Translations under genes and position numbers: made by a program | Assembly: GCA_041746655.1 (NCBI GenBank) | Contig: JBGTGR010000003.1 | Span: 36,275-100,274, forward strand | From: Elainellales cyanobacterium | GTDB lineage: Bacteria; Cyanobacteriota; Cyanobacteriia; Elainellales; Elainellaceae | Direction: 5' to 3' | DNA length: 64,000 bases | Notes under the pieces: model-generated | Told to the model about the DNA's origin: nothing | Databases searched by the model: none | Seen by the model: the letters and a program-made list of their open reading frames with translations, nothing else | Shown here: positions 2,206 to 56,722 of the stretch, one piece after another | Position numbering within the stretch: position 1 is the stretch's first letter | Layout of the letters: every line of letters starts with the position of its first letter

Positions 2206-2410
2206 TCCTGGGGAAAAACTATGTGCCAACTGTGTCAAATTGCCCTCCGTTATCAGCAATCTAAGCAAGGCAGTTCTCCACTGCTGAACGCCAAACTCAC
2301 GGCTTTAGTTGTCTTAAACCAAACAAAAACAGCACCTGCGATCGCCTCCAGCTCTTCCAAATAATTTATTTGAATTGCGGGTTGTCAAGACGTACATTTG
2401 ATTCTATTGA

Positions 2411-2430
2411 TTGATCAAATGATTGATCAA
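2411..2430. promoter_or_regulatory. Two copies of the perfect palindrome TTGATCAA (2411-2418, 2423-2430), 12 bp apart, just upstream of the SARP regulator start
   Basis: Sequence ATTGATTGATCAAATGATTGATCAAAA read directly. It lies 34-53 nt upstream of the ATG at 2464. Confidence 0.3.
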
Positions 2431-2463
2431 AACTTTGTCTGGCAATCAATCCTTGAGCCAGGG

Positions 2464-11869: not shown

Positions 11870-13279
11870 TTAACTTCCACTTGCACTTCCAATCACGCCC
11901 GTTAGTTGTAACAGGTAGATTACTGCAAACGCCGCAAAGAATAATCCTGCTATCACTGTTCCAGCAAAAATAAACTTCGATGGACGCAACTCCTTCGGCA
12001 ACATGCGATGATTCAAGTAGAGCGTTAATCCGGTGACGATGGGAATGTGAGCGGCTTCAATAGCCCCTGCCGTTTGCAGCAAACCCACAGGTTTCCCAAA
12101 GAACAAGTAGATGGCGATCGGGAGTGCTGCTAGCAGAATTACAATGTAAAACTTACGCAGAAACTTTTCATTGACCCAGCGACCACTCACTCCAAATCCT
12201 TGCAGAATGATTTGTGTGCCATCAGCAAACATGCGTCCAAATCCATCCTGCACGGAAAGCGTCGTGCTGCAAAAGGTGATAAATACGATCGCGATCATAA
12301 ACCAGAAGCCAAACGGACCCCACAAGTCACCCAGCAGGTTTCCCAATGTTTCGGCAACCTGATCTTCTTGGGGAACAAGTCCTTGTGGACGCAACAACTC
12401 ACTCCCTAAAATCAGGAATGCTAAAGCGGCTAGCAGTGCCCCTATCACAGCCAGAGTATTTGAGAGCATCATTTGCATCGTCCACCCCTGCAAGTGCTGC
12501 CGTTCTTCACGTCCAATTTGAGAAAAATCGATGGGTTCTTCTTGCTTAAGGGCAGCGGCTCCATAGCCTCTAGCTCCAACCCAGTAGGAATACCACATTA
12601 GCCCTGCGGCACCTGCCAACATAAAACCTAGCCAGGGTAGAATCTCGTCATAGCGCACATCGGATAGAATTTGGGGCACCAATCCAGAGGTGAGTTGTCC
12701 AAGGTTGGGAAAAACAATCACAGCAGCTACTACCACGGCGATCGTCCGAGCAATACCTATATAAGATGAAATTTTCTCTACTCCTTCATATTGCCCTAGA
12801 AAAACAATCGCAGCGGTTACAAGAATAATAAGCACAGTCCAGAGTTGAACCGTTCCTCCTGTCACCAAAATCAAGGCAGTGGAAGCGGTTCCCGTGAGTC
12901 CTGCAACGGTAGAAATTGCAACGACAACTTGTGGAATTAAGATTAACCAAACTGCCCAGTTTTTAGGGCCTGGTAGCCGCCTAAAGCCTTCCAAAATCGT
13001 TGTTCCACTGCAAACAGTGAAACGTCCAATCTCACCATTGATAAACCACTTTAAAATTACGGCTGCTAGCAGTGCCCACAGAAGAGAATAGCCATAAAAA
13101 GCGGCAATTCGAGGCGTAAACAACAGTTCTCCAGATCCTGCTGCCGACAGCATCCAGATGAAGCTGGGACCTAGCCATAGAAAACGCTGCCAGCCTTGTG
13201 GAGGTTTGGGTATCCGTTGAGTATTATCCTCTTGCTGCTCGGCGGTTGGAGACGAATTGTAGTCATTTTGGCTACTCAT
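11870..13279 (-). CDS. Nramp-family-like divalent metal cation transporter (polytopic membrane protein)
   Basis: 469 aa with about 11 hydrophobic segments. The N-terminal GPSFIWMLSAAGSGELLFTPRIAAFYGYSLLWAL resembles the distant Nramp subgroup pattern, but there is no canonical DPGN motif. Confidence 0.5.
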   Translation of the reverse strand: MSSQNDYNSSPTAEQQEDNTQRIPKPPQGWQRFLWLGPSFIWMLSAAGSGELLFTPRIAAFYGYSLLWALLAAVILKWFINGEIGRFTVCSGTTILEGFRRLPGPKNWAVWLILIPQVVVAISTVAGLTGTASTALILVTGGTVQLWTVLIILVTAAIVFLGQYEGVEKISSYIGIARTIAVVVAAVIVFPNLGQLTSGLVPQILSDVRYDEILPWLGFMLAGAAGLMWYSYWVGARGYGAAALKQEEPIDFSQIGREERQHLQGWTMQMMLSNTLAVIGALLAALAFLILGSELLRPQGLVPQEDQVAETLGNLLGDLWGPFGFWFMIAIVFITFCSTTLSVQDGFGRMFADGTQIILQGFGVSGRWVNEKFLRKFYIVILLAALPIAIYLFFGKPVGLLQTAGAIEAAHIPIVTGLTLYLNHRMLPKELRPSKFIFAGTVIAGLFFAAFAVIYLLQLTGVIGSASGS

Positions 13280-13400
13280 TTTCTTGTCGCCTTAGAAAAT
13301 ATTTATTTGAGGCTTTTCTTCCGTCGTTATACTCGGTCAAGCGTATAAGTTGGAGGCGATCGCTACTTCTAGCTAACGGAGGAAGAAGGATTTCAAACTA

Positions 13401-13462
13401 TTGAATGACGAAAGTTTCATACAAATTTCATTTTTGTGTGAAATGCTCAATGTAGAGAATTA
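13401..13462 (+). promoter_or_regulatory. Promoter/operator module copy A: direct repeat TTTCAT-N5-TTTCAT (11-bp period) plus a -10-like TAGAGAAT, upstream of the response regulator and divergent from the Nramp-like gene
   Basis: ttgaatgacgaaagTTTCATacaaaTTTCATttttgtgtgaaatgctcaatgTAGAGAATt. About 75-80% identical to copy B at 14510-14572. Confidence 0.45.
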
Positions 13463-13546
13463 GTAACGTAATACACGTAATATATCCATTAACAAGTATC
13501 TATAAATAAAGAAGACAACTAACGAGTAAATGGAATATTTAGAGAA

Positions 13547-16573: not shown

Positions 16574-18649
16574 CTAATCTTCTTCTTCTCCTACCTCTAA
16601 AACTCTCACTAAAAAGCCCCAGCGGTCGGCGACTTCTTCGATGACTTTGGTGGTGGGTTTGCCTGCTCCATGTCCGGCTTTAGTTTCGATGCGGATCAGA
16701 ACGGGGGGGGTTCCGGTGTGGGCGGTTTGGAGGGCGGCGGCAAATTTGAAGCTGTGGGCGGGGACGACGCGATCGTCGTGGTCGGCGGTGGTGACGAGGG
16801 TGGCGGGGTAGGTGATGTTGGGTTTGAGGTTGTGGAGGGGGGAGTAGGCGTGGAGGGCTTTGAATTCGTCAGGGTTTTCGGGGGAGCCGTAGTCTGAGCA
16901 CCAGGCCCAGCCAATGGTGAATTTGTGGAAGCGCAGCATGTCGAGGACGCCGACGGCGGGCAGGGTGGCGGCGAAGAGGTCGGGGCGTTGGGTCATGCAG
17001 GCTCCGACGAGGAGGCCACCGTTGCTGCCACCGCCGATCGCCAGCTTTTTGGGGGAGGTGTATTGATGCTCGATTAGCCATTCGGCGGCGGTGATGAAGT
17101 CGTCGAAGACGTTTTGTTTGTTGAGTTTGGTGCCTGCCTGGTGCCAGTCTTCGCCATATTCGCCGCCACCGCGCAGGTTGGGAACGGCAAAGATGCCGCC
17201 CATTTCCATCCAGACTAGGTTGCTAGGTGAGAAGAAGGGCGTGAGTGATATGTTGAAGCCGCCGTAGCCGTAGAGATAGGTGGGGTTGTTGCCGTCGAGG
17301 GTCAGCCCTTGTTTGTGGCTGATGAACATGGGGACGCGGGTGCCGTCTTTGCTGGTGTAGAAGACCTGCTGGGTTTGGTAATCTTCGGGGTTGAAGGCGA
17401 CGGTGGGCTGTCGGAAGAGAGTGCTTTCACCGCTGACCAGGTCGTAACGGTAGATGGTGTTGGGGGTGGTGAAGCTGGTAAAGCTGTAGAAGGTTTCTGT
17501 ATCTGCTTTTTTGCCGCCAAATCCACCTGCGGAGCCGAGTCCGGGTAGCTCGACCTGCCGCACAAAGTTGCCTTGCAGGTCAAAAATTTTGATTTCGGTA
17601 TGGGCATCTTTTAGGTAAGCGGCGACAAACTGCTGGTTGAGGGTGCCGACGTTTTCTAAGGTTTCTTCGGCTTGGGGAATAATTTCTTGCCAGTTTTTGC
17701 GTTCGGGTGCGGCTAGATCGATGGCAATGAGGCGACCACGCGGTGCGTCTAGGTCAGTTTGAAACCAGAAAACAGAGCCTTCGTTGTCTACGAGTTCAAA
17801 TCGAGCTTCAAATTCGCTGATCAACTCTACGATGGGCGCGTCAGGGGTGGACAGGTCTTTCCAAAAGAATAGGTTTTTGGGCTCTGAGCCGCGACTGACG
17901 TAGATGATGAGATAGCGTCCGTCTTCGGTGACGTCGGCGTTAAACATCCATTCTTTTTGGTCGGGGCGATCGTAGACCAAAACGTCTTCGGTTTGGGGCG
18001 TGCCGAGGCGGTGATAGTAGAGCTTTTGGAAATAGTTGATGTCTTCTAATTTGGTGTCTTCATTGGGCTGGTCGTAGCGCGAGTAGAAGAAGCCTTGATG
18101 GTCGTGAGTCCAGGCGGCACCAGAAAATTTTACCCACTGGAGATGATCGGGCAGGTCTTCGCCAGTTTCAATGTCGCGGACTTTCCACTCTTTCCAGTCT
18201 GAGCCGGAACTGGAAAGGCCATAAGCTAGTAGTTTGGCGTCTTCACTGACGGCCATGCCCGACAGCGCCACGGTGCCATCTTCGGAGAGGGTGTTGGGAT
18301 CGATTAGGACGCGAGGCTCTGCATCCAGGTGAGGGAGGGTGTAGAGAACGCTCTGGTTTTGCAGGCCGTCGTTTTTGAAGTAGAAGTAGCGATCGCCCTG
18401 CTTAAACGGCACTCCAAATTTTTCGTAGTTCCAAAGCTCTGTCGCCCGCTGTCGAATCGTTTCCCGCTCTGGAATATCGTTGAGATAGCCAAATGTCACC
18501 TGATTTTGCGCTTCAATCCAGGCTCGACTCTCGTCAGAGTCTGGATCTTCCAACCACCGATAAGGGTCCGCAATCTTGACGCCATGATAGTCATCGACCT
18601 GATCACCTTGATGACTGGCTGGATAGACAAGTGACTTCTCAATAGACAT
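16574..18649 (-). CDS. Prolyl oligopeptidase (S9A serine peptidase)
   Basis: N-terminus DDYHGVKIADPYRWLED, nucleophile elbow GGSNGGLL and C-terminal catalytic region AGHGAGKP. Start taken at the ATG at 18649 (MSIEKSLVYP). Confidence 0.9.
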   Translation of the reverse strand: MSIEKSLVYPASHQGDQVDDYHGVKIADPYRWLEDPDSDESRAWIEAQNQVTFGYLNDIPERETIRQRATELWNYEKFGVPFKQGDRYFYFKNDGLQNQSVLYTLPHLDAEPRVLIDPNTLSEDGTVALSGMAVSEDAKLLAYGLSSSGSDWKEWKVRDIETGEDLPDHLQWVKFSGAAWTHDHQGFFYSRYDQPNEDTKLEDINYFQKLYYHRLGTPQTEDVLVYDRPDQKEWMFNADVTEDGRYLIIYVSRGSEPKNLFFWKDLSTPDAPIVELISEFEARFELVDNEGSVFWFQTDLDAPRGRLIAIDLAAPERKNWQEIIPQAEETLENVGTLNQQFVAAYLKDAHTEIKIFDLQGNFVRQVELPGLGSAGGFGGKKADTETFYSFTSFTTPNTIYRYDLVSGESTLFRQPTVAFNPEDYQTQQVFYTSKDGTRVPMFISHKQGLTLDGNNPTYLYGYGGFNISLTPFFSPSNLVWMEMGGIFAVPNLRGGGEYGEDWHQAGTKLNKQNVFDDFITAAEWLIEHQYTSPKKLAIGGGSNGGLLVGACMTQRPDLFAATLPAVGVLDMLRFHKFTIGWAWCSDYGSPENPDEFKALHAYSPLHNLKPNITYPATLVTTADHDDRVVPAHSFKFAAALQTAHTGTPPVLIRIETKAGHGAGKPTTKVIEEVADRWGFLVRVLEVGEEED

Positions 18650-18798
18650 AGCACCGCATCTTAAACAAACACCTTCCAATGTATCTCGTTCGCTGAATGA
18701 GATGAGAATCAGGAGTCTGTTTCTTCTGATAGAGCAAAGCTCAAGCGGCTTTTCTCTATCCTTGGATTGAGCATTTCAATCAAGGCATAGAAATCATC

Positions 18799-21403: not shown

Positions 21404-23203
21404 TTAAAAGGCGGAGGAATTAGAAATCGGTTGGGGACGAGGTGCTGAGCTGCTGCTGGCGATCCATTTTTTGGCGATCGCCATCCGCCAGCCTGTACCA
21501 AAGGCGCGATCGGTAATTTTGAGGCCGGGGGGCGCTTGTTTGCGTTTAAATTCGGCTCTAGCGACGAGACGGACGACGCGATCAACAATTGCAGGATCAT
21601 GACCTGCGGCAGCGATGTCAGCAGGAGCTTGATGTTGCAGGATGAGGCGATCGAGAATGTCGTCGAGGATGTCGTAGGAGGGCAGGGAGTCTTGATCGCG
21701 CTGGTCGGGTTTGAGTTCGGCGCTGGGAGGTTTCTCTAGAATATTGGGGGGGATGACGAAGGCTGAAGTGGGCCGCAGCATAGCTGATGGATCGAGGCTG
21801 TTGTTGGTGCAGCCTGCGGAGGTCATGGTTGCGTTGAGCCAGTGGCAGAGGGAGTAAACGCGGGTTTTGGGAACGTCGGCGATCGCAGCCAGTCCCCCAT
21901 TCATATCGCCGTAGAGGGTGCAGTAACCGACGGCCATTTCTGACTTGTTTCCGGTTGAGATCAAGAGATGGCCAAACTTATTGGATACAGCCATGAGCAA
22001 GTTGCCCCGGATGCGCGACTGGATATTTTCTTCGGCAATACCAAATTCGGTTCCGGCAAACAGCTCGGCAAAGGTTTCGTCATAGCTCTGCATCAGTTTA
22101 CCGATGGGTAAGGTGTGGGTTGCAATGCCCAAACTTTTGGCAAGTTCTAATGCATCGGTGACAGAATGGTCGGAGCTGTAGGGAGACGGCATCAGTATGC
22201 CCAGGACGTTTGCTGAGCCGAGGGCAGCGGTGGCGATCGCCCCCACCAGAGCAGAGTCAATGCCGCCGCTCAGGCCAATTACCACCTTAGAAAAGCCACA
22301 CTTTCGGGTATAGTCTCGCACGCCCGTCACCAGCGCCGACCAGATTTCGGCATCTGCACTGTCGGGTTGCGGGGCGATCGCTCCTGCCAGCAATTCACCT
22401 TGCGCCAGATCAAACTCGACCCGCAGCAAATCGGGGGCAAAGGCGCGAGCCCGACAGATCAAGTCTCCCCGACTATTGAAGCCGACGCTGCTGCCGTCAA
22501 AAATCAGATCATCGTTGCCGCCGACTTGATTGGCGTAGAGAATCGGCTGCTGATAGCGCACCGCCGCATGACGCAGCATGTCTTCCCGAATTTTTTGCTT
22601 GCCGAGGCTGTAGGGTGAAGCTGACAAGTTTACGACCAGATCAACGTCCTGATTGGCCAGATCCGCGATCGGGTTGACGGTATAGCTGCGCTTGCCCCAA
22701 AAAGCTTCATCGTTCCAGAGGTCTTCGCAGATGGTGACACCGACCTTGAGGGGAGGCTCATTTCCATCCAGCGCTGCTAGCTGAAAAGAATTGCTCTGGA
22801 GTCCGGGTTCAAAGTAACGATCTTCATCGAACACGTCATAGGAGGGTAGCAGTCGCTTGTGAAAAATCTGCTGAACCGCACCCCCATCTAGGAGGGCAAT
22901 GCTATTGAAGAGAGGATTGCCGCCGTCTTCGTGCGATCGCACATTGGGTTCTACTATCCCCACCAACACCGCAATCTGGGGCGGCAAGTCTTTTGCTAAC
23001 TGCGTCACAGTATCGGCGATCGCCCGCACAAAGCTGGGTTGCAGCAACAAATCTCGCGGCGGATAGCCACAGAGGGAAAGTTCGGGCGTCAGCAACAGTC
23101 GAACTCCCTGCTCAGCAGCAGTCTGAGCCGCTTGAAGGATTTGCTGGGCGTTGCCAGCTAGATCTCCAATGGTGGGATTGAGTTGGGCGATCGCAAGTTT
23201 CAT
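21404..23203 (-). CDS. nadE: Glutamine-dependent NAD+ synthetase (CN-hydrolase domain + NAD synthetase domain)
   Basis: N-terminal nitrilase-like domain (MKLAIAQLNPTIGD...TICEDLW) and the PP-loop GLSGGIDSA. Confidence 0.9.
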   Translation of the reverse strand: MKLAIAQLNPTIGDLAGNAQQILQAAQTAAEQGVRLLLTPELSLCGYPPRDLLLQPSFVRAIADTVTQLAKDLPPQIAVLVGIVEPNVRSHEDGGNPLFNSIALLDGGAVQQIFHKRLLPSYDVFDEDRYFEPGLQSNSFQLAALDGNEPPLKVGVTICEDLWNDEAFWGKRSYTVNPIADLANQDVDLVVNLSASPYSLGKQKIREDMLRHAAVRYQQPILYANQVGGNDDLIFDGSSVGFNSRGDLICRARAFAPDLLRVEFDLAQGELLAGAIAPQPDSADAEIWSALVTGVRDYTRKCGFSKVVIGLSGGIDSALVGAIATAALGSANVLGILMPSPYSSDHSVTDALELAKSLGIATHTLPIGKLMQSYDETFAELFAGTEFGIAEENIQSRIRGNLLMAVSNKFGHLLISTGNKSEMAVGYCTLYGDMNGGLAAIADVPKTRVYSLCHWLNATMTSAGCTNNSLDPSAMLRPTSAFVIPPNILEKPPSAELKPDQRDQDSLPSYDILDDILDRLILQHQAPADIAAAGHDPAIVDRVVRLVARAEFKRKQAPPGLKITDRAFGTGWRMAIAKKWIASSSSAPRPQPISNSSAF

Positions 23204-23205
23204 AT

Positions 23206-23952
23206 CTAGATAAAAACTAGAGGCTTGTCTTTGAGGGGGGCGAAGGCGTCGGCGTCGAAGCGGTAGAGACTGGCGGGGCGTCCGGCTCCGCGTGAGGTTT
23301 TGAGGCCTGTATCGGAGAGGAAACCGAGCTTGAGTAGGCGGGCGCGGAAGTTGGAATAGTCGGAAAAGTTTTCGCCCAAGACGGTGGTATAGAGCTGATA
23401 TAGATCGCTGAGGGTAAAGGTTTCGGGCAGGACTTCAAAGGCGATCGGGCTATATTCCAACTTGTTTCTGAGGCGGCGATAGCCATATTCCAGCAGTTGG
23501 TTGTGGTCGAAGGCGAGTTGGGGAACCTGATCCATCGGATACCAGGCAATGCCGCTGACACCGTCGGCAATCAGCTCAGCTTCGGCAAAGCGCACCAGGG
23601 CAAAATAGCTAACCGAGAGATAGCGCACCCCGTAGCTATGTTTGTCTTCCCTGGGGTCGCGTCCGGGGCCGCCGAAGGTATAAAGCTGCTCTAGATAGAG
23701 GTTTTCGACCCGAATCTTTTCGGCTAACACTCGATAGGCGGCATCTTCTAAGGATTCGCCTTTCTGGACTAGTGTGCCGGGTAGACTCCACTGCCCCAGA
23801 AAGGGATCGTCCCGGCGCATGACCAGCAGCACCAGCAGACGATTTTGAACCGTATCGACTGAAAAAATCACGCTATCAACCCCGACCTTAAAATCGGCTA
23901 GGGCCTTCGAGTTTAGTGAGTCGGCAGTTTTTTTCTGGACTCGTCCTGACAT
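23206..23952 (-). CDS. nrtR: Nudix-related transcriptional regulator of NAD metabolism (NrtR-like): Nudix fold + C-terminal winged helix
   Basis: The Nudix-box region GESLEDAAYRVLAEKIRVE is degenerate at the REUxEE positions (RVLAEK). A C-terminal ~90-aa wHTH-like domain is present. The gene is embedded in the pncB-nadD-nadE operon. Confidence 0.65.
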   Translation of the reverse strand: MSGRVQKKTADSLNSKALADFKVGVDSVIFSVDTVQNRLLVLLVMRRDDPFLGQWSLPGTLVQKGESLEDAAYRVLAEKIRVENLYLEQLYTFGGPGRDPREDKHSYGVRYLSVSYFALVRFAEAELIADGVSGIAWYPMDQVPQLAFDHNQLLEYGYRRLRNKLEYSPIAFEVLPETFTLSDLYQLYTTVLGENFSDYSNFRARLLKLGFLSDTGLKTSRGAGRPASLYRFDADAFAPLKDKPLVFI

Positions 23953-24512
23953 TCGTATAGCTGCTCCCGATGGATATAGGCCTCAATGGGAGGAGTCAGC
24001 ACTTCTGGATCTCCTTCTTCACGATACGCTGTCGAGGAGACCGCTGGAACCTCTAAATCGGCGATCGCCACTTCTGCGCCCAGTTGCCGCAGGGGATCTA
24101 AGTCGGCTTCCTGCAATGTGTAGCCGGGACGAGGAATCACCAACAGCTTCACCATTTTCAGCAAATCCTCTATCCGATACCAGCTCGGCAACTGCTCGAC
24201 CAAATCAGAGCCCACTGTGAGCGTCAGGTCGGCATCGGGCCAGCGCTGACGGGCTTGCTCGACGGTGAACAGCGTGCGGGGACTGCTTAATTCTGAATGT
24301 AGCGCAATGTTGTTGCGCGGCGGGTAGATATCTGCGATCAAGAGCCGCAACATGGCCTCCCGATGTACTAACGGCGTCTGGTGAGACTTAAAAGGATTGT
24401 CGGAGGCCCAAACCACGACTTGATCGTAGCGATAGGAGAGCCAGCTAAGGATCTTTTGGTGTCCGGCAGTGGGTGGATCAGCGCTGGTGCCAAAGAGAGC
24501 AATGGAAGTCAT
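23913..24512 (-). CDS. nadD: Nicotinate-nucleotide adenylyltransferase
   Basis: IALFGTSADPPTAGHQ (the (H/T)xGH motif). Start taken at the ATG at 24512 (MTSIALFG); the track ORF extends to 24605 and overlaps pncB. Confidence 0.8.
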   Translation of the reverse strand: MTSIALFGTSADPPTAGHQKILSWLSYRYDQVVVWASDNPFKSHQTPLVHREAMLRLLIADIYPPRNNIALHSELSSPRTLFTVEQARQRWPDADLTLTVGSDLVEQLPSWYRIEDLLKMVKLLVIPRPGYTLQEADLDPLRQLGAEVAIADLEVPAVSSTAYREEGDPEVLTPPIEAYIHREQLYECQDESRKKLPTH

Positions 24513-24576
24513 AGGGGTCGGCCATAGAGAGCGATTGAGAACAAACAGAGTTGGATTCAGCGATCTTAGCCAAACC

Positions 24577-25953
24577 CTATCCTGCGGGCTGTCCAGCATA
24601 AGCACCGTGAATTCGCTGGTGGACTTGCTCAGCTAGATTTTGCAAATCATCGGAGATTTTGGGCTCAACTGCAACCGGATGCTCTAGCCAGCGTGTCGAT
24701 TCGGGCAGGCTGACGACGGAGGCACGAGTGCGACGGGCGATCGCCTCCAAAGTCTCTGGCGGCTGCAATGCTTCTCCCTGGGCCATGACGCGCTGGAGCA
24801 GCGGTTGACCTTCCACTTGGGTTTCACCGACGAGAGCGAGGCGATCGCCCCTCATTTGCCCCGCCTCAAAGTACCGAAAAATCTGTTTACGGCCTGGATA
24901 GGTGGCCTTGCGACTCGACTCTTTCATGGTGGCAATATTGTCGATCTCAACTAGCTTATAGACGCCGTTGACGGGTTCTCCAGTCACGAGTTTGGTGCCC
25001 AGTCCGTAGCCGTCGATGCTGGCTCCAGCGGCCAAAAGTTCAGCAATCTTATATTCATCTAAGTCGCCGCTGGCAAAAATTTGGGCTTCAGGGAGGAGCG
25101 ATCGCACCTGCTTTGATAGCGCTGCTAAGTCGCCCGAATCGAGCCGCACCCCAGAAACCTGGATCTGGCCAGCCTGTTGTTGCTCGGCCAACCGTCGAGC
25201 CGCATCGACCGTATCGTAGGTGTCGATCAACAGTGTCGCAGATGGGAAATAGCGATGAAAGGCCCGGAATGCCTTGTCTTCATCGCCTTCTAGGGCGGAA
25301 AGCGCCATTACGAGAGCATGGGCCATTGTTCCACTGGGTTGTTGCCCCAGCTTGACGGCAGCCAAAACGTTGGAAGTTGCGTCCAATCCTGCCGCCAGCG
25401 CTGCCCGTGCCGCCCACATCGAACCCTGGGGACTAAAGGCTCGACGAGTGCCAAACTCCAACAGCTTGGCATCTGGCCCTGCTACATCCCGCAGACGTGC
25501 CGCACGGGTCGCCACCAACGTCTGAGAGTTGATCGCGTTTAGGATGTAGGTTTCCACAAGCTGGGCTTGCCAGAGGGGAGCCTCTATCCGCAAAAACGGT
25601 TCATTGGCAAACAGAGCGGTTCCTTCGGGCACAGCCCAAACATCGCCTGTAAAGCTGGCCTCGCTAAGCAGGTCCCAAAACCGCGACGGCACATGCTCAA
25701 ACAGTCCAGTAGCCTGTAATGCTGAAATCTGGGCCGGACCAAAGCTAAATTTCTCTAAGTAGTCCAGCACTTGAGCCAAACCCATCGCGATCAGGTAGCC
25801 GTAGCCTGTGGGCAATTTTCGGACAAACAGCTCAAAGCTTGCTCGACGTTGCTCCAACCCTTCACCCACATAGCAAGCTGCCATGGTGAGTTGGTACAGG
25901 TCAGTGAGCAGGCCATATTCTTCTGGACGAATGATGAGTTCCTGATCTGGCAT
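24577..25953 (-). CDS. pncB: Nicotinate phosphoribosyltransferase
   Basis: 458 aa. N-terminal LLTDLYQLTMAACY and overall NAPRTase-like sequence. First gene of the NAD operon. Confidence 0.85.
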   Translation of the reverse strand: MPDQELIIRPEEYGLLTDLYQLTMAACYVGEGLEQRRASFELFVRKLPTGYGYLIAMGLAQVLDYLEKFSFGPAQISALQATGLFEHVPSRFWDLLSEASFTGDVWAVPEGTALFANEPFLRIEAPLWQAQLVETYILNAINSQTLVATRAARLRDVAGPDAKLLEFGTRRAFSPQGSMWAARAALAAGLDATSNVLAAVKLGQQPSGTMAHALVMALSALEGDEDKAFRAFHRYFPSATLLIDTYDTVDAARRLAEQQQAGQIQVSGVRLDSGDLAALSKQVRSLLPEAQIFASGDLDEYKIAELLAAGASIDGYGLGTKLVTGEPVNGVYKLVEIDNIATMKESSRKATYPGRKQIFRYFEAGQMRGDRLALVGETQVEGQPLLQRVMAQGEALQPPETLEAIARRTRASVVSLPESTRWLEHPVAVEPKISDDLQNLAEQVHQRIHGAYAGQPAG

Positions 25954-25989
25954 ACAGTTTCCTGGGCGGTGCTGAAGTGATCACCTTAA

Positions 25990-26010
25990 TTATAGTGAAT
26001 TTAACTAAAA
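25990..26010. promoter_or_regulatory. Candidate NrtR operator 1 (21-mer imperfect palindrome with TAGT-N7-ACTA core), 37 nt upstream of the pncB ATG
   Basis: TTATAGTGAATTTAACTAAAA read directly. 18 of 21 positions are identical to the second site at 26144-26164. Confidence 0.4.
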
Positions 26011-26143
26011 GTAGATCGAGAAGCTCTGCTCAAGCTCTACTCGTTTCTCATTGGGAAAGATCGAACTACCCAGCCCAATCATGCTTCTCTCTAGAGATGC
26101 CGAAGCCCTTCTGATGGATCGCGTCTCCTGCTCAGGGTGGGGA

Positions 26144-26164
26144 TTATATTAGATTTAACTAAAA
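26144..26164. promoter_or_regulatory. Candidate NrtR operator 2
   Basis: TTATATTAGATTTAACTAAAA read directly, in the same intergenic region about 190 nt upstream of pncB. Confidence 0.35.
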
Positions 26165-26220
26165 CTAGCGGGAGCGATCGCCTCATTCTCAACTAGCTTG
26201 GCTTCCAGATCCCGCAACTG

Positions 26221-27135
26221 CTAATCCATGCTAATCGCAACGGTTTTGAGCAGCGCCAGCGGGCCTTGAGCTTTGATCTGGTTGAGTTGCTGTTCGTTTC
26301 GAGCCAGGAAGGTTCCGGCAAATCCCAGCGCGTTGACCGAGATCTCGCCGAAACTTTCTGCGGTACGGGGTATGACCATCATCCAGCGGCGGGTGGCGAG
26401 CAGGTTATAGGCTTTGGGCGTAGAGTCGTGCCAAAGGTGAGTTGCTTTGAGAAGGGTCTGGTAGCGATCGCAGGTGAGCTGTCCGGCCTGAGCCAGATCG
26501 TTGGCCCAGTCGGGATCGAGGGGGGCGATCGTATGTAAAAAGGGCAAATCGGGGCTAATGCCGATACCGTCTGAAAACTGAGCGGTGGCGATCGCGGCTT
26601 CAATCGGAACTGCCGGACCTTGGGGAAGCAATGGCAGGGGGACAAGCTGGAGGTGCTTGTGGCGCTGGCTCGCTCCGGCGATGGTGCCCGCATTGTAGAA
26701 GGCCAGCCCATCCATTTGAGCCAGACAGGCCCACAGGGCGGTAAAGTCTTGCAGGGTAATCAGAGAGTCCTGCGCTTCAAAGGCGCGCGTCACGATCAGC
26801 AGGTGGTGATCCATGACGTTGTATTTGTTGAGCAGGCAAACGTGGGTTTCAGACAGCTCTGCCACAAACAGTTTTTCGTCGTAGGGCAGGAACGGGTTGA
26901 AGTCTTTGCCCCTGGAAGATTTTTGCTGTTCGGCCTTGGCTTGATCTTTGCGAATCAGGCTGGGTAAAACCCGCACCAAAAAGCGAATGTTGCCGTCGTC
27001 TACATATTCAGATTCAGTGTCGATCGGTTCTAGTGCACCACAATTCAACGCCTGTTGGGTTGTTTGCCGAGCCAGATCCCAGAGCGTGCCGGGTTCTAAG
27101 AGGATTTCTGGAGTGGGAAAAAATTCTGCAGACAT
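26221..27135 (-). CDS. ATP adenylyltransferase / Ap4A phosphorylase II (Apa2-like)
   Basis: NKYNVMDHHLLIVTRAFE and the HIT-like SQRHKHLQLVPLP motif. Confidence 0.75.
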   Translation of the reverse strand: MSAEFFPTPEILLEPGTLWDLARQTTQQALNCGALEPIDTESEYVDDGNIRFLVRVLPSLIRKDQAKAEQQKSSRGKDFNPFLPYDEKLFVAELSETHVCLLNKYNVMDHHLLIVTRAFEAQDSLITLQDFTALWACLAQMDGLAFYNAGTIAGASQRHKHLQLVPLPLLPQGPAVPIEAAIATAQFSDGIGISPDLPFLHTIAPLDPDWANDLAQAGQLTCDRYQTLLKATHLWHDSTPKAYNLLATRRWMMVIPRTAESFGEISVNALGFAGTFLARNEQQLNQIKAQGPLALLKTVAISMD

Positions 27136-29237: not shown

Positions 29238-29537
29238 ATGCAGGCATTGATGCGCGAGCTTTCTTTGTCAGAACATTCGGTGGTGGTGGCGGTTCAAGGA
29301 CAAGTTTCTGCTGATTTGGCTGGAGAGGCTGTAGTGCTCAATCTTCAGTCAGGCGTATATTACGGTCTCAATGAAGTTGGGGCTCGCATTTGGGAACTGA
29401 TTCAGCAGCCGACTTCTGTTGTCATGCTTTGCGAGACGTTGCTGGCTGAATATGAGGTGGAGCCAGAGCGCTGTCAACAAGATCTGTTGCAGATTTGCCA
29501 AGACCTGATTGCCTCTGGATTGGCGGAGGTCTTATGA
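29238..29537 (+). CDS. Lasso peptide biosynthesis B1 protein (PqqD-family RiPP recognition element)
   Basis: 99 aa. GEAVVLNLQSGVYYGLNEVGARIWELI is a classic PqqD/RRE signature. Its stop overlaps the next ATG (ATGA at 29534-29537). Confidence 0.85.
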   Translation: MQALMRELSLSEHSVVVAVQGQVSADLAGEAVVLNLQSGVYYGLNEVGARIWELIQQPTSVVMLCETLLAEYEVEPERCQQDLLQICQDLIASGLAEVL

Positions 29538-30001
29538 AAGATCTGATGAAAGGTCTGTATTGGGTTTGGCGTCATAGAATCTGGCACTTGTCGGCGGGCG
29601 ATCGCCTCCTATTGCTACGAGCAGTCTTACGGCTGGGCTGGGTGCGATTGGGGCTATGGCTGCTGCCGTTTTCGGTGTGGCGAAACTGGTGGTTGCGATC
29701 GCCCGCCCCCTCAACCGATCTGCGTCCGGTGGTCACGGTGGCTCAAATTGCCTGGGCTGTAGCTGCTGCTAGTCGTCTGCAACCAGGAACCGCCAAGTGT
29801 TTGGCGAGGGCCTTAACGATGCAGGCTCTGCTCAAGCAATATAGCTATGCGGCGGATCTCCATGTGGGTGTCGCGAAGGGAGACCAAGGCCAGCTAGAGG
29901 CTCATGCCTGGGTTGAGGCTGAGGGCCGAGTGGTAATAGGACAGTTAAATGATTTGACCCGCTTTGTGCCGCTGCCGTCGCTGGTTGGAGGGCGATCATG
30001 A
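29534..30001 (+). CDS. Lasso peptide biosynthesis B2 protein (transglutaminase-like cysteine protease, leader peptidase)
   Basis: Trp/Arg/Leu-rich N-terminus, then GTAKCLARAL (Cys) ... LHVGV ... EAHAWVE (His), typical of PF13471 lasso B2 proteins. ATGA overlap with the cyclase start. Confidence 0.85.
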   Translation: MKDLMKGLYWVWRHRIWHLSAGDRLLLLRAVLRLGWVRLGLWLLPFSVWRNWWLRSPAPSTDLRPVVTVAQIAWAVAAASRLQPGTAKCLARALTMQALLKQYSYAADLHVGVAKGDQGQLEAHAWVEAEGRVVIGQLNDLTRFVPLPSLVGGRS

Positions 30002-32007
30002 GCGGCATCGTTGGGATCTATGGCTGCAATAGTCAACACCTCCACCAAGCTGAGTTGCAGCGGATGGTGGAGGTGTTGGCGCATCGAGGACCCGACGGTG
30101 CAGAAATGTGGCTGGAGGGAGCAATTGGGCTGGGGCATCGCATGCTGTGGACAACGCCTGAGTCTTTGCTGGAGCGCTTGCCCTGGGTGAGTTCGGGGGG
30201 CTGTGTGATTACGGCAGATGCCCGAATTGATAACCGAGAGGAGCTGATTGCAACGCTGGCAATGGGCGATCGCCCTGCCGAAAAAATCACCGACAGTGAG
30301 CTGATTGTGGCGGCGTATGAATGTTGGGGCGATCGCTGTCTTGATCACTTGTTGGGCGATTTCGCCTTTGCAATTTGGGACCCCCACCAACAGCAGTTGT
30401 TTTGTGCAAGAGATCATTTTGGTGTCAAGCCGTTTTACTACTACGCGCAAGAGGGTCAATTTATTTTTGCCTCAGAAATGAAGGCTATCTTGGCACTGCC
30501 ACAAGTGCCTCGCCGTATCAATGAGGTGCGGATTGGCGACTACCTCAGCATGGCAATGGAAGATCAGACGATCACCACCTATCAAGACATTCTGCGGCTG
30601 CCACCTGCCCATCAGATGACGGTTAGCTCAACGGGGCTACAGCTCCAATGCTATTGGTCACTCAACCCGACACAAGAGCTTTACTTGGAGTCGGATGCAG
30701 CCTATGCAGAGGCATTTCAGCGAATCTTTACCAAAGCGGTGCGCTGTCGGTTGCGGAGTACTTTTGCAATCGGGTCTCAGCTCAGTGGTGGTCTCGATTC
30801 TTCGGCAGTGACCTGTGTGGCCCGACAGCTTCTGGTTGAAGCAGAGCAAGCGCCACTGCATACGATTTCAAATATTTTTGACACCATTACTGAGTGCGAT
30901 GAGCGTCCCTACATTCAAGCTGTCCTGGCAGAGGGAGACTTGATCCCTCACTATGTGCAAGCTGATGAAGTCGGTCCATTGACAGACGTTAAAGAGATCT
31001 GGCAGTACGAAGATGAGGCCTTTACGGGGCCAAATCATTACCTGCCCTGGGGCCTCAACCGAGCGGCACAGCAGCATGGCCTGCGCGTAGTTTTAGACGG
31101 ATTTGATGGCGACACCACCGTTTCGCACGGATTGCTCCGCCTGTTAGAACTGCTCGATCAAGGTGACTGGCAAACCTTTGTTCAAGAAGCAGAGGCGATC
31201 GCCCCCCGTTTAGATCTCTCCGCTCAAGCGGTGATTCAAAGCTATAGCGAGCTGCATCTACAGCAATTGGCCAAGCAAGGACGATGGCGAGCCTGGATAT
31301 GGGCTGCTCGTCAGCTCAACAAATATTGTCGTGGGTTGCCCCAGCACCTCCTACTCAGAACCGGGCTCAAGCCGCTGATTCCCCACCGCCTCAAGCAGCT
31401 CTGGCAACGACTTCGTTCTGGCTCTTCCAGTGCCAGATCCATGCCCTGGATCAATCCCAGCTTTGCCCGTCAGATTGGCCTAGAGCAGCGAATCCAGGCT
31501 CAAGGGCAATCTTCCGACCCGCCATTGACGGTGAGAGAAGAACAATGGCGATCGCTCACCTCTGGCGTCCGCACCTACGTGCTAGAGCAAATGGATCGCT
31601 ATGCGGCTGCCTGTGGCCTGGAGATGCGCCATCCCTTTATGGACAAACGATTGATTGAGTTTTGTCTGGCACTGCCTGCCCAGCAAAAGCTAGACCAGGG
31701 CTGGAATCGTATCGTCATGCGTCGAGCCCTGACTGGAATTTTGCCGGAGGTCATCCAGTGGCGCAGCAGTAAAACAGACATGACGCCCAATTTTGTTCAT
31801 GGCTTGCTCGACCTCGATCGTCAATCTCTGGAGGCTGCAATTCTCAACCGCTCTAGCCTCCTAGAGAAGTATATGGATGCTGACTTTTTACAAACTGTTT
31901 ATCACCAGATTTCAACAGAAGGAAAAGTCGGAAACGGCGACCTGATGATGATTTGGCGAACTGCCATCTTGGCGCTGTGGCTTCACCAAGGTCAAGCGGT
32001 ACCATGA
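29998..32007 (+). CDS. Lasso peptide cyclase (asparagine-synthetase-like C protein)
   Basis: 669 aa. The N-terminus is MSGIVGIYG, with Ser where true AsnB has the Cys2 nucleophile. PP-loop SGGLDSS is present. The context is B1/B2/precursor. Confidence 0.9.
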   Translation: MSGIVGIYGCNSQHLHQAELQRMVEVLAHRGPDGAEMWLEGAIGLGHRMLWTTPESLLERLPWVSSGGCVITADARIDNREELIATLAMGDRPAEKITDSELIVAAYECWGDRCLDHLLGDFAFAIWDPHQQQLFCARDHFGVKPFYYYAQEGQFIFASEMKAILALPQVPRRINEVRIGDYLSMAMEDQTITTYQDILRLPPAHQMTVSSTGLQLQCYWSLNPTQELYLESDAAYAEAFQRIFTKAVRCRLRSTFAIGSQLSGGLDSSAVTCVARQLLVEAEQAPLHTISNIFDTITECDERPYIQAVLAEGDLIPHYVQADEVGPLTDVKEIWQYEDEAFTGPNHYLPWGLNRAAQQHGLRVVLDGFDGDTTVSHGLLRLLELLDQGDWQTFVQEAEAIAPRLDLSAQAVIQSYSELHLQQLAKQGRWRAWIWAARQLNKYCRGLPQHLLLRTGLKPLIPHRLKQLWQRLRSGSSSARSMPWINPSFARQIGLEQRIQAQGQSSDPPLTVREEQWRSLTSGVRTYVLEQMDRYAAACGLEMRHPFMDKRLIEFCLALPAQQKLDQGWNRIVMRRALTGILPEVIQWRSSKTDMTPNFVHGLLDLDRQSLEAAILNRSSLLEKYMDADFLQTVYHQISTEGKVGNGDLMMIWRTAILALWLHQGQAVP

Positions 32008-32074
32008 CCAAAAATTAGGGCTGCAATACCAACTTCAAGACCTCACTAGAAGATTAAGAACAGGAGACTCCAGA

Positions 32075-32260
32075 ATGAAAAAGAGTTACACCCCCCCCAA
32101 AATCACAGTTCACGGCACTATTGAAGAACTCACCCAGTTCTTTGATGCCGTGTCGGCTAGAGACACACTATTTACTTCCGGAAACCCAGCAGGGATTGCT
32201 GGCGAAGGCTCGGCTGACTTCAGATGTCGAGCGGGTGGCGTCTGCGAGATTGAGCCTTAA
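32075..32260 (+). CDS. Lasso peptide precursor (A), 61 aa
   Basis: AGGAG RBS 8 nt upstream. MKKSYTPPKITVHGTIEELTQ fits the lasso leader motif YxxPx(L/I)x3Gx5Tx. Downstream sequence: FFDAVSARDTLFTSGNPAGIAGEGSADFRCRAGGVCEIEP. Confidence 0.8.
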   Translation: MKKSYTPPKITVHGTIEELTQFFDAVSARDTLFTSGNPAGIAGEGSADFRCRAGGVCEIEP

Positions 32261-32455
32261 TAACTAAGTCACACAGCTCAGACTGAGCCAACCCATTCTT
32301 TAGGCAGTGCATCTTGGGAACGTTGCTCCATCAGGCTAGCCCAGCTTTGTTCTCAACCTTTGTTCTGTTGGGAGAATTTTGCCCCACACGCAGCTCAAAG
32401 ACTTCTACCAAGCTGGGCCTACCTTTCCTCCAAATTCTTGCTTCGGCTATTGGTG

Positions 32456-33358
32456 ATGTACATCTACACGGCTTATCACCTTTGTATTCATTCCGAGTTC
32501 CCGCTCCAGGAACTGACGATTGCTGATGGGGCACCAGATGTAACGGTGCGGTTGGGCCAGATTAAAGCGTTGGCAGATGGACCGCTTAATGGTAAAAACA
32601 ATGATAAAAATCGAGTATTGGGAGAATTGTCCGGCATTGGGTGGTTCTTGATTGAGCAAGGACACACTATCACCATCGAACCTGAGCCGGGTGTTGATGA
32701 TTTAGCTTTGAGCCCTAACGTGTTGGGGCCTGCCATGTCGGTCCTCTTGCGACAAAGAGGATTATTGGTCTTACATGCCAGCAGTGTCGTGGTTGGAGGA
32801 GAGGCGATCGCCTTCCTGGGTGCCTCCGGTTGGGGTAAATCGACTCTAGCCAAAGCTTTTCACAATCAGGGCTATAGCGTTCTCACCGATGATGTGCTGG
32901 CCATTGATACCCACCCTGCTACACCTGTGGTGCTGCCAGGATTTCCTCAGCTCAAGCTCTGGCCCGATGCCGCTCTCTCATTAGGTTCCAACAATCTGCC
33001 ACCGCTCTTTCCCAATGCCTCTAAGCTTGCGTTTCGGTTTGACCAGGGCTTTCAACTGACGCCAATCCCTCTCCGGCGCATCTATGTACTGGCACGAGGA
33101 ATTGATCACAAAATTTCTCCCCTGGAGCCTCAAACAGCGCTAATCGAGCTGGTCCGCCATACTCGCATGGTCAATGTTTTAAAGGCACCCGAATTAGTGC
33201 GGGCGCACTTGCAGCAATGTGCGGATCTGGTGCAGCAGACATCAATCCGCCAGTTTACGCGGCAATTGTCACTGGCAGCCATGCCTGAATTGATTCAGCT
33301 GATCGAAGCCGATTTGGGCATCGGTAATGCGATCGCCTGCGAATCCTCACCCGGATAA
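32456..33358 (+). CDS. HPr-kinase-like (HprK C-terminal domain) protein, putative lasso peptide kinase
   Basis: LVLHASSVVVGGEAIAFLGASGWGKSTLAKAF carries the P-loop. Start taken at the ATG at 32456; the track ORF begins at a TTG at 32360. Confidence 0.7.
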   Translation: MYIYTAYHLCIHSEFPLQELTIADGAPDVTVRLGQIKALADGPLNGKNNDKNRVLGELSGIGWFLIEQGHTITIEPEPGVDDLALSPNVLGPAMSVLLRQRGLLVLHASSVVVGGEAIAFLGASGWGKSTLAKAFHNQGYSVLTDDVLAIDTHPATPVVLPGFPQLKLWPDAALSLGSNNLPPLFPNASKLAFRFDQGFQLTPIPLRRIYVLARGIDHKISPLEPQTALIELVRHTRMVNVLKAPELVRAHLQQCADLVQQTSIRQFTRQLSLAAMPELIQLIEADLGIGNAIACESSPG

Positions 33359-34508
33359 AGTCCCAACCGTAGTATTCATTTTCATCGCTGACCCGCCTCT
33401 TATGAATTTTTCGTTGGCCATTGCTCCAGAAAAAGAGCATCCAGAGGCAAGGCTGGTGCGCTGCTGCGCTCGAATGCAAATGAGTGCAGAGTGGGAAAAA
33501 GCCCTCCGCCAGACCCTCTTGCTGCCGATCGATTGGCCCCTGTTGACTCAAATTGCGCTCTGTCAGGGTATGATGCCCTTGCTCTATCGGAACTTGAAGG
33601 CCACTTGCCCTGAAGCCGTGCCCCCGGCTTGCTTGCGATCGCTCCAGCAACACTTTCAAGCCAATGCCCTGCACAGCTTGCCTTATGCACAGGAGCTATT
33701 GCACCTCTTGCGCCAGCTAGATGCCTCTCAAGTTCGCGCCATTCCTTACAAAGGCCCCATGCTAGCGGCGAAGGTTTATCACAATCTTTCACTGCGAGAG
33801 TTTTGTGATTTGGATATTTTGGTGCATGAGCAAGATGCAGCAAAGGCGATCGCCCTCCTCCAAAACGAAGGCTACGATTGCACAACTGCATCAGCCTGGG
33901 AACAAAACTTTTGCCACTATACCCGCAAAGTCAATGTTGACTTGCACTGGGGCATTACCCAGCCCTATCTCGCTTTTCCGATCGAGTTTGATCACCTATG
34001 GCAGCGACGGGAAACTGTTTTGATGTCGGGGGCCGAGGTGCCTAGCCTGTCGGCAGAAGATTTGCTAATAGTGTTGGTGGTGCAAGTTGCCAAAGATGGC
34101 TGGTGCAGACAGTCTCAGCTGATTAAAGTCTGCGATGTGGCTGAGCTGATCCATTCGCGGCCCGAGCTCAACTGGGATTGGGTAATGGCAGAGGCTCGCC
34201 GCAAGGGAAGCTTACGCATACTATTTTTGGGATTGTTAATTGCGACTGAGGTGTTGGGCGCACCCCTACCGCCAGAAATTGCTATGCAAGTCCGGGCTGA
34301 TGCCACGATTCGAGGGTTGGCCGCCAGAATCCAACAGCAACTCTTTGAGGCTCGATGGCTGACCTCAATGGCCTCTAAAGGCATCTTGCAAGTCTTGAAA
34401 GATCGGGCTGATACGGCTGTGTTCCCGCTCCAGATGAGAGAACGCTGGCAGGATCAAGTCCCTTACTTACTGCACGGCTTGAAGACTTTAGTTGCTCAGC
34501 GAGATTGA
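33327..34508 (+). CDS. Uncharacterised nucleotidyltransferase family protein (PF14907/NTP_transf_5-like), lasso-cluster-associated
   Basis: FCDLDILVHEQDAAKAIALLQNEGY is typical of this family. The start is either the ATG at 33327 (32-nt overlap with the kinase) or the ATG at 33402. Confidence 0.6.
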   Translation: MRSPANPHPDKVPTVVFIFIADPPLMNFSLAIAPEKEHPEARLVRCCARMQMSAEWEKALRQTLLLPIDWPLLTQIALCQGMMPLLYRNLKATCPEAVPPACLRSLQQHFQANALHSLPYAQELLHLLRQLDASQVRAIPYKGPMLAAKVYHNLSLREFCDLDILVHEQDAAKAIALLQNEGYDCTTASAWEQNFCHYTRKVNVDLHWGITQPYLAFPIEFDHLWQRRETVLMSGAEVPSLSAEDLLIVLVVQVAKDGWCRQSQLIKVCDVAELIHSRPELNWDWVMAEARRKGSLRILFLGLLIATEVLGAPLPPEIAMQVRADATIRGLAARIQQQLFEARWLTSMASKGILQVLKDRADTAVFPLQMRERWQDQVPYLLHGLKTLVAQRD

Positions 34509-54322: not shown

Positions 54323-55267
54323 CTATCTCATCCATCTAGGTTGTTTTCCCTGTTGAAGTCTAGCCCTGACCTGCTCTGGTTTCTTGGTCGCTATTAAATT
54401 AAGATAGGGATAACGAGCGCGCAAAGCCTCCGGAACTAGACTTTTTGATTTAGGATCGTAAGTAAAGAGTTGATATCCCAACTTAATGAGCTGGTGATAG
54501 AGTGCTTCACAAGAAGAGTTTGCTGCTTTGCAGTTCTTCTCTGTAAATTCGACCTGTAACACAGGAGCATCTGGGCGGGAGAGAATCTCGGTAGCACCTG
54601 ATAGAACATAAGATTCCCAACCTTCCACATCAATTTTCATCATAGTGACGTGCCCCACTAGATTATTCTCCTGGGCAAACAAGCTCCATGTTGTAGCCTT
54701 AACTGTTTCCGTCGCAAAGTCGCTACCTGCAGTAGGTTTTCCTAATGAGTTCCAGGCATCAAACCCATCTAAAGATGTGGTCATGTTTAGATCAGAAACC
54801 TGATCGGAAAGCGCAAGTTGATAGCAATCAATGTGGGTAAAGCAATTGAGGTTAACATTTTCTAGTAAGCGCTGATAGGTTTGTCCAGAAGGTTCAAATG
54901 CATAAACTTTTCCAGTTTTACCTACTAACTTCGCGGCAATTAAACTAAACAATCCAATATTGGCACCAATATCAATATAAGTGTCTCCTGGTCGTAGAAA
55001 AGCATTTAAAAATTTTCGCTCTGAATACTCAAATCTTCCTCGATAGATCAGGCGGCAAAGATCACTATCTCGATACAGCCGCATTTTTACACCTGGCTGA
55101 ATTTGAAGATCCATTATTTTCTTATAGTCAGTCTGAGCATTCCACCATTCAATCCGCTTTGGTGTAATATAGCGACGCCATTTGAATTGGAGGCGATGCT
55201 GGACATGGTTTACCAAAGTTCCGTTGCGGAAGTGAGTAATACCGTGATTAAACTTGCTCAACATCAT
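54323..55267 (-). CDS. FkbM-family methyltransferase
   Basis: YIDIGANIGLFSLIAAKLVG motif. Start taken at the ATG at 55267; the track ORF extends to 55321 and overlaps wzt. Confidence 0.7.
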   Translation of the reverse strand: MMLSKFNHGITHFRNGTLVNHVQHRLQFKWRRYITPKRIEWWNAQTDYKKIMDLQIQPGVKMRLYRDSDLCRLIYRGRFEYSERKFLNAFLRPGDTYIDIGANIGLFSLIAAKLVGKTGKVYAFEPSGQTYQRLLENVNLNCFTHIDCYQLALSDQVSDLNMTTSLDGFDAWNSLGKPTAGSDFATETVKATTWSLFAQENNLVGHVTMMKIDVEGWESYVLSGATEILSRPDAPVLQVEFTEKNCKAANSSCEALYHQLIKLGYQLFTYDPKSKSLVPEALRARYPYLNLIATKKPEQVRARLQQGKQPRWMR

Positions 55268-56567: not shown

Positions 56568-56722
56568 TATCTACCCCACCCTCACTATAGTTTTGACGGT
56601 TTCACAATAGAGGCGATCGCCTCAACCCAAAACCTTCTCAGATATCTTCTAACCTATTCATTGATTTCTCTCCACATCGGGACAAATCAAAGAGAAGACC
56701 TACAGGCCACCTCGACCCTCCC

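Follow-up and report, generated by a model that had tools for sequence, protein, structure and literature searches.

What does a cyanobacterium make from six adjacent genes that read as a lasso-peptide pathway with no exporter beside it, and is that pathway intact? The genes occupy positions 29238-34508 of a 64,000-nucleotide stretch from an Elainellales cyanobacterium (assembly GCA_041746655.1, contig JBGTGR010000003.1), the whole of which we call the window. Judging by sequence, they very probably constitute a native, chromosomal and intact operon for a lasso peptide, a peptide that is made by the ribosome and modified after translation (RiPP), of the cyanobacterial family modelled by NCBIfam, and would act by the mechanism proposed below. 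This cluster type is neither rare nor unrecognised: its cyclase and precursor have dedicated NCBIfam models, and its kinase has 1,296 detectable homologues, mostly cyanobacterial. The cluster belongs to a known, chemically unexplored family and makes one architectural departure from it, the missing exporter. New here are that absence, an internal G-S-x-D motif set against the C-terminal Ser rule of lasso kinases, and long cores with a Cys pair in 20 of 61 cases. The features discussed below are as follows (aa, amino acids).

29238..29537, plus strand: B1, PqqD-like RiPP recognition element (RRE), 99 aa (PF05402)
29534..30001, plus strand: B2, transglutaminase-like Cys leader peptidase, 155 aa (NF033537, PF13471)
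29998..32007, plus strand: C, ATP-dependent isopeptide-forming lasso cyclase, an AsnB homologue, 669 aa (NF033535)
32062..32066, plus strand: AGGAG, ribosome-binding site of the precursor gene, read in the sequence 8 nt 5' of the ATG at 32075
32075..32260, plus strand: A, precursor, 61 aa (NF033528, with NF033521 leader domain)
32138..32164, plus strand: codons F1-D9, predicted 9-residue macrolactam ring, from the leader motif and the conserved core Asp9
32207..32218, plus strand: codons G24-S25-A26-D27, G-S-x-D tail motif and candidate phosphorylation site, from family conservation
32225..32245, plus strand: codons C30 to C36, predicted tail disulfide loop, from Cys pairing across family cores
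32456..33358, plus strand: K, P-loop peptide kinase with a predicted HprK/PEPCK fold (PEPCK, phosphoenolpyruvate carboxykinase), 300 aa, from weak profile matches, the predicted fold and H107/K128/D145/D146
33402..34508, plus strand: N, PF14907 nucleotidyltransferase, 368 aa from the ATG at 33402 (reading frame open from 33327), PsmN homologue by family

The six open reading frames (ORFs) at 29238-34508 are co-directional and full length, and no frameshift or stop is seen in them. The same contig is present in a second assembly made independently (Logan SRR28170462, locus L014), where the genes called are of 99, 155, 669, 61, 300 and 368 aa. These calls place the kinase start at 32456 and make 33402 a better candidate than 33327 for the start of N. 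An initial annotation, made by a model from the letters and a list of reading frames, had proposed this row of co-directional genes in the order B1-B2-C-A-kinase-nucleotidyltransferase, with the first three coupled by ATGA overlaps and a strong ribosome-binding site before the 61-aa ORF. The second assembly carries the same genes, direct reading of the sequence finds start/stop overlaps for B1/B2 at 29534-29537 and for B2/C at 29998-30001, and AGGAG is read 8 nt before the precursor ATG.

The family assignment is carried first by the three core enzymes. In hidden Markov model (HMM) searches B1 matches the PqqD model PF05402 at 72.7 bits (cut-off 23.4) and reaches 79.4 bits against the lasso-specific NF033536 lasso_PqqD_Bac, marginally short of the cut-off of 80. 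B2 scores 103.6 bits against NF033537 lasso_biosyn_B2 (cut-off 33) and 83.7 bits against PF13471; it has both the GTAKCL (Cys) and AHAWVE (His) motifs, and across 39 family B2 proteins C89 and H124 are conserved in 100% and D140 in 90%. C matches NF033535 lass_lactam_cya ("lasso peptide isopeptide bond-forming cyclase") over residues 1-664 at 985.2 bits, where the cut-off is 525, and also PF00733 (167 bits) and the Pfam families GATase_7 and GATase_6. It passes the asparagine synthetase model TIGR01536 only narrowly (277.9 versus a cut-off of 267.1, compared with 985 for NF033535), and no relative recovered exceeds 58% identity to it. Its N-terminus is MSGIVG, with M1-S2-G3-I4 invariant among 10 aligned cyclases; the glutaminase nucleophile Cys2 of AsnB was not found in C, Ser2 being invariant in 10/10 of these sequences, and the PP-loop LSGGLDSS (S263-G-G-L-D-S-S269) is invariant in the same set.

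The Cys and His of B2, and the Ser2 and intact PP-loop of C, had been picked out in the initial annotation and are conserved in these family alignments. Among the Pfam families it had pointed to, PF05402, PF13471, PF00733 and PF14907 match, and PF07475 falls below its cut-off in the kinase. It had also named a lack of any match of B1, B2 and C to the lasso families as what would speak against it; NF033537 and NF033535 are instead matched above their cut-offs and NF033536 falls just under. The larger claim, a complete tailored lasso pathway in a cyanobacterium, holds up on the family HMMs, the conserved catalytic residues and a synteny that recurs in more than 40 loci.

The precursor ties the enzymes to a substrate. 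A homologue search with the 61-aa precursor as query returned only the precursor itself, and its relatives were recovered through cyclase matches combined with a leader regular expression. This gave a comparison set of 61 unique precursors, from loci whose cyclase is at least 45% identical to that of the window. The window precursor scores 38.2 bits against NF033528 lasso_cyano (cut-off 33), and the leader domain NF033521 spans residues 5-21. The leader comprises residues 1-21, MKKSYTPPKITVHGTIEELTQ, and is followed by a core of 40 aa, FFDAVSARDTLFTSGNPAGIAGEGSADFRCRAGGVCEIEP. The leader motif Y-x-x-P-x-(L/I)-x3-G-x5-T-x is present with Y5 (-17), P8 (-14), I10 (-12), G14 (-8) and T20 (-2), a spacing of Y(-17), P(-14), L/I(-12), G(-8) and T(-2) that is kept throughout the 61 family precursors. 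The description of this leader as canonical is thus upheld by both models and by the exact spacing, which places cleavage after Gln21. Asp occupies core position 9 in 58/61 family cores and in the window precursor, and this conserved residue predicts a 9-residue ring, F1-D9 here.

Established lasso biochemistry, together with the lasso membership features found in these genes, suggests a minimal pathway in which B1 binds, B2 cleaves and C cyclises. B1 would bind the leader of the 61-aa precursor via the Y-x-x-P-x-(L/I)-x3-G-x5-T-x motif, and B2, using Cys89 and His124, would cleave after Gln21. C would then adenylate Asp9 and couple it to the new N-terminus, Phe1, to give a 9-residue macrolactam, through which the very long tail would thread.

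The first residues of the core raise a different reading of the ring. Family cores open with V, A, F or I and the window core with Phe, and position 3 is Gly in 54/61 family precursors and Asp, which is rare, in the window, whose core thus starts FFD against a hydrophobic-hydrophobic-Gly consensus. Gly is the commonest first residue of characterised lasso peptides and seven is a permitted ring size, so the leader might be cut two residues later to leave a 7-residue ring (G3-D9 in most relatives), in which case F1-D9 would be wrong and the window peptide, with D3, an aberrant substrate. We consider this improbable: such a cut would put the Thr at -4, not at the -2 needed for B2 recognition, the leader spacing is exact only with cleavage after Q21, and residue 21 is where the NF033521 leader model stops. 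The paeninodin ring, A1-D9, likewise has nine residues. A ring of F1-D9 with cleavage after Gln21 is the reading we carry forward.

To place the cluster among its relatives, 98 related loci (numbered L001 onwards) were collected and annotated by tblastn. Genes in this family run B1-B2-C-A(1-3 copies)-K-D-N, D being an ABC exporter with fused transmembrane and nucleotide-binding domains (TMD-NBD) and a length of about 600 aa (612 in L001), and the order B1-B2-C-A-K-(D)-N is the one found in the more than 40 syntenic loci. The precursor does lie after the cyclase, as first described; this is the family norm and no peculiarity of the window. One precursor gene stands between C and K in the window. 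Duplicated clusters or several, divergent precursor genes at that place are found in many relatives: two or three precursor genes in L022, L023, L029, L031, L037, L048, L056, L069 and L072, and tandem clusters or two cyclase copies in L003, L029 and L032. The cyanobacterial lasso systems that NCBIfam models (NF033535, NF033528) are the closest known counterparts: the window shares with them a cyclase and a precursor above curated cut-offs, the B1-B2-C-A-K...N order, a leader ending in TQ, the acceptor D9 and a long tail with G-S-x-D, and differs from them in having no exporter between K and N and a core that starts FFD. Cyanobacterial lasso clusters have also been predicted by genome mining, for example in Cyanocohniella sp. 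LLY (PMC9332814).

The tail is where the family parts from characterised lasso peptides. An S-x-D motif is found in the tail of 54/61 precursors, compared with 15.3 +/- 3.1, and never more than 25, over 2000 shuffles of the tails. Gly directly precedes the motif Ser in 46 of those 54 precursors, and a hydrophobic residue or Gly follows the motif; the window version is G24-S25-A26-D27-F28. Family cores run from 28 to 54 aa with a median of 38, and 20 of the 61 contain exactly two Cys (40 contain none), the pair always lying downstream of the S-x-D motif. In the window core a single pair, C30 and C36, follows the motif, and a tail disulfide between Cys30 and Cys36 is predicted. Class IV lasso peptides (LP2006 type), in which a disulfide lies in the tail, resemble the window peptide in that C30 and C36 are both in the tail, and for that reason the predicted bond would not tether tail to ring. 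They come from another phylum with other enzymes, and the window peptide is much longer, its disulfide being a prediction.

Two further genes would act on this tail. N matches PF14907 at 209.3 bits (cut-off 31.2), and its metal-binding motif D136-x-D138, conserved in 100% of 28 family members, matches the D134/D136 pair of PsmN, mutation of which inactivates that enzyme (PMC6993621). K is harder to place by sequence, its profile matches all being sub-threshold (TIGR04352 HprK_rel_A at 30.5 bits; PF07475 at 18.1 versus a cut-off of 33.3; TIGR00679 at 15.8 versus 240), and a sequence search of the PDB gave nothing significant for K and no match at all for N. Since these matches were weak or absent, the fold of K was predicted from a model instead. 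The AlphaFold model, built from 34 homologues, has a mean predicted local distance difference test (pLDDT) of 90.9 and a predicted template modelling score (pTM) of 0.88. Searched against PDB structures, it aligns with ATP-dependent PEP carboxykinases (E 3e-8, TM-score 0.56, query-normalised) and with the HPr kinase/phosphatase catalytic domain (E 5.5e-6, TM-score 0.60, target-normalised). The model thus assigns K the known HprK/PEPCK P-loop fold, and what it has in common with the HPr kinase family is the superfamily fold only. In the TIGR00679 HprK model the P-loop, the His and the Asp-Asp of K residues 106-152 align gap-free; unlike HPr kinase/phosphorylase, K scores far under the cut-offs, has no HPr context and has another N-terminal domain.

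H107, K128 and D146 do not vary across the 34 K homologues, and D145 is kept in at least 90% of them; these four residues are the counterparts of the His-Lys-Asp-Asp motif of lasso kinases, whose catalytic role in lasso-tailoring kinases was established by mutagenesis (review PMC9266682). The initial annotation had likened K and N to the tailoring enzymes of paeninodin (Paenibacillus dendritiformis), which is phosphorylated, and pseudomycoidin (Bacillus pseudomycoides), which is phosphorylated and glycosylated. The likeness stands for the split B1/B2, for C, for the His-Lys-Asp-Asp HprK-like kinase and the DxD PF14907 nucleotidyltransferase, and for the 9-residue ring closed on Asp, which is predicted in the window. 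It does not reach the phosphosite, which in those two peptides is the C-terminal Ser, because the window precursor ends ...CEIEP, with a C-terminal Pro; a C-terminal Ser is found in only 6/61 family precursors, and the family keeps the internal G-S-x-D. The window core is also about twice as long, has a Cys pair in its tail, and comes with no exporter in the window.

The only characterised homologues of K, namely PadeK, ThcoK, SyanK and PsmK, phosphorylate the linear precursor at its C-terminal Ser, which is strictly conserved (PMC9266682), and PsmN is needed for the addition of hexose to the phosphate in pseudomycoidin (PMC6993621). With the C-terminal Ser acceptor absent here, we infer that K targets the internal, conserved Ser25 of G-S-x-D. 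By analogy with PadeK, phosphorylation would probably take place on the linear precursor, and N would then elaborate the phosphate with a hexose or nucleotide, as PsmN does; that K modifies S25 and N builds on it is the account that conservation best supports. The predicted product is a peptide with an F1-D9 macrolactam, a C30-C36 disulfide and possibly a phospho(glycosyl)-Ser25. Zyubko et al. suggested that a bulky phospho-hexose could lock the thread (PMC6993621), and one may speculate that an internal modified Ser would suit such a role. The G-S-x-D motif and K also occur together outside cyanobacteria, for example in Rhodothermales L011 (GSFDIC), and some distant loci with K have precursors that end in Ser instead (L008, L063).

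K and N might instead belong to what lies next door. The lasso cluster adjoins a polysaccharide locus of about 25 kb on the minus strand (34496-59237), which contains GT4, GT2, Methyltransf_21, several more GT4/GT2 genes and an ABC-2 Wzm/Wzt pair. Polysaccharide genes also flank L001, L002, L015, L016, L017, L020-L024, L028, L040, L069 and L094. Together, the 91 flanking ORFs of 33 related loci include 9 GT4, 8 Wzc-like proteins (Wzz + P-loop), 3 WecG, 2 Wza and 2 GDP-mannose dehydratases, which looks like a recurrent lasso-polysaccharide neighbourhood, the counts being raw with respect to shared ancestry and genome background. The Wzt/Wzm-like ABC-2 pair of the window (55248-57565, minus strand) has homologues, 67-78% identical, that flank the lasso cluster of the metagenomic locus L054 on both sides (700-2428 and 12695-13471); the pair in L054 is far closer to that of the window than are its lasso genes (cyclase 48% identical).

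That K and N serve this adjacent polysaccharide pathway, in the phosphorylation or nucleotidylation of a sugar or lipid carrier and not in lasso tailoring, would fit the glycosyltransferase/ABC-2 locus alongside and the GT4, Wzc-like, Wza and WecG genes that recur in the flanks of relatives, and N-type chemistry is unsettled even for PsmN. We nonetheless regard it as highly improbable. In more than 30 loci K and N are fixed downstream of A on the lasso strand, whatever the flanks; K has the His-Lys-Asp-Asp motif that is catalytic in lasso kinases; the polysaccharide genes of the window lie on the opposite strand; and the Ser motif of the precursor co-occurs with K in distant phyla, as in L011.

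The absence of D sets the cluster apart from most relatives. Among 36 informative relatives, with a cyclase at least 45% identical to that of the window, D directly follows K in 31, lies about 1 kb further on in one and upstream in one, and is lacking in three (L017, L027, L038). No D lies between K, which ends at 33358, and N, which starts at 33402, and a tblastn of the L001 exporter against the window found no remnant of it there. The sole match was to the nucleotide-binding domain of a Wzt-like ATPase (55806-56390, minus strand; 25% identity). We rejected this ABC ATPase (55248-56567) as a substitute exporter, given the 25% identity, the restriction of the match to the NBD and the pairing with an ABC-2 permease in the polysaccharide cluster. 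The only S9 peptidase of the window (16574-18679, minus strand; Peptidase_S9_N at 466 bits) was likewise rejected as an isopeptidase, being a canonical prolyl endopeptidase (768.6 bits to PDB 6jci) 11 kb upstream; the prolyl endopeptidase family includes peptide macrocyclases such as PCY1 (matches of about 600 bits), and nothing ties the window gene to the lasso cluster. A lasso-type ABC exporter or isopeptidase is thus found nowhere in the 64-kb window, as the initial annotation had reported for the strand of the cluster, and the missing exporter is a true departure from the B1-B2-C-A-K-D-N arrangement.

The four loci without D are scattered on a neighbour-joining tree of cyclases, so exporter loss is recurrent. 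B2 is split in L017, B2 is missing in L027 and B1/B2 are missing in L038, which leaves the window as the only one of the four to keep all six remaining genes intact; clusters without B have also been noted in the cyanobacterium Stanieria by Zyubko et al. The company of these three loci, the retention of D beside K in 31/36 relatives and the rare core residues 1-3 (FFD versus x-x-G) would be expected if the window cluster were a silent or decaying remnant that lost its exporter, gives no mature product and is drifting to a pseudogene. We consider this unlikely. The six full-length ORFs free of frameshifts and stops, the intact overlaps, the ribosome-binding site and the catalytic residues all stand against decay, and astexin-type lasso clusters are known that have no transporter. 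Those proteobacterial clusters, which have an isopeptidase and no exporter, resemble the window in lacking a dedicated ABC exporter; unlike them, the window has no isopeptidase, a split B, and kinase and nucleotidyltransferase tailoring genes. With no D, the pathway may leave its product retained or cell-associated, export it by an unlinked system, or make it at a low level.

The cluster also appears to be at home in its genome. The HIP1 octamer GCGATCGC has 112 sites in the 64-kb window versus 1.03 expected, and the 10 sites within the 5.3-kb cluster equal the window-average density, which indicates that the cluster is native and has long been resident, as opposed to recently imported. The kinase gene has one copy (33329-33336) at its 3' end, beside the K/N junction where relatives have the exporter. 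The close relatives of the cyclase and kinase are all cyanobacterial, among them Brasilonema, Scytonema, Rhizonema, Vacuolonema, Moorena, Crinalium, Nostoc, Calothrix and Fischerella, and together with the HIP1 excess they support a cyanobacterial origin. Every window protein that was looked up, housekeeping proteins included, is a singleton at 90% identity among some 15 billion proteins; the source lineage is sparsely sampled.

Several points weigh against an intact, working lasso operon as proposed here. K matches HprK-family HMMs solely below their cut-offs, and the case for Ser25 as its candidate phosphosite is drawn from conservation. The unusual Phe and Asp at core positions 1 and 3 make it uncertain how efficiently the window precursor would be processed. 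Structurally solved lasso peptides have 14-33 aa (PMC12214591), and the 40-aa core exceeds them all, so that its threading is a prediction. Finally, the lost or split B1/B2 of the other three loci without D suggests that exporter loss may accompany decay.

Searches for regulatory signals were negative. No RNA family was found in an Rfam search of the window, and promoter-like (4 versus 3.8 in shuffled sequence) and terminator-like sites (6 versus 6.2) in the cluster are not above chance. The spacer between A and K folds no better than shuffles (z = -0.2), and thus gives no evidence of an attenuator 3' of the precursor gene. Directly upstream of the cluster, 21404-27135 on the minus strand is a block for NAD salvage and synthesis (NadE, a NUDIX/NrtR-like regulator, a CTP_transf_like protein, NAPRTase and Ap4A phosphorylase), which is ordinary housekeeping. 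A 1072-aa BTAD + AAA_16 regulator (SARP/LuxR-like STAND) is encoded at 2398-5616 on the plus strand, 24 kb upstream.

The initial annotation had held that few or no lasso peptides have been characterised from cyanobacteria, and this agrees with the record: lasso structures have been solved for peptides of Pseudomonadota, Actinomycetota and Bacillota only (PMC12214591), cyanobacterial clusters figure as predictions, and in the literature we searched no cyanobacterium is reported as the source of an isolated lasso peptide. It is possible, though doubtful, that the family is a distinct lasso subclass, with peptides of 28-54 aa phosphorylated or phosphoglycosylated at the internal Ser of G-S-x-D, the added group and, in a third of members, the disulfide serving as a steric lock, and with a cell-associated or envelope role in place of that of a secreted antibiotic. 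Were this so, the polysaccharide-locus neighbourhood and the repeated loss of the exporter would both speak for the cell-associated or envelope role.

Overall, this lasso family is abundant in cyanobacterial genomes although the structures solved so far belong to three other phyla. What the sequences predict for all its members is where the leader is cut, a ring of nine residues that closes on Asp9, phosphorylation of an internal Ser and, in one third, a tail disulfide. Such a phosphosite would go against the rule, drawn from the only lasso kinases characterised, that the acceptor is a C-terminal Ser, and the predictions, if confirmed, would extend the known chemistry and size of lasso peptides. 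The exporter-less, intact cluster of the window offers a compact six-gene construct for heterologous expression, and a natural test of whether an exporter is needed in production or immunity.

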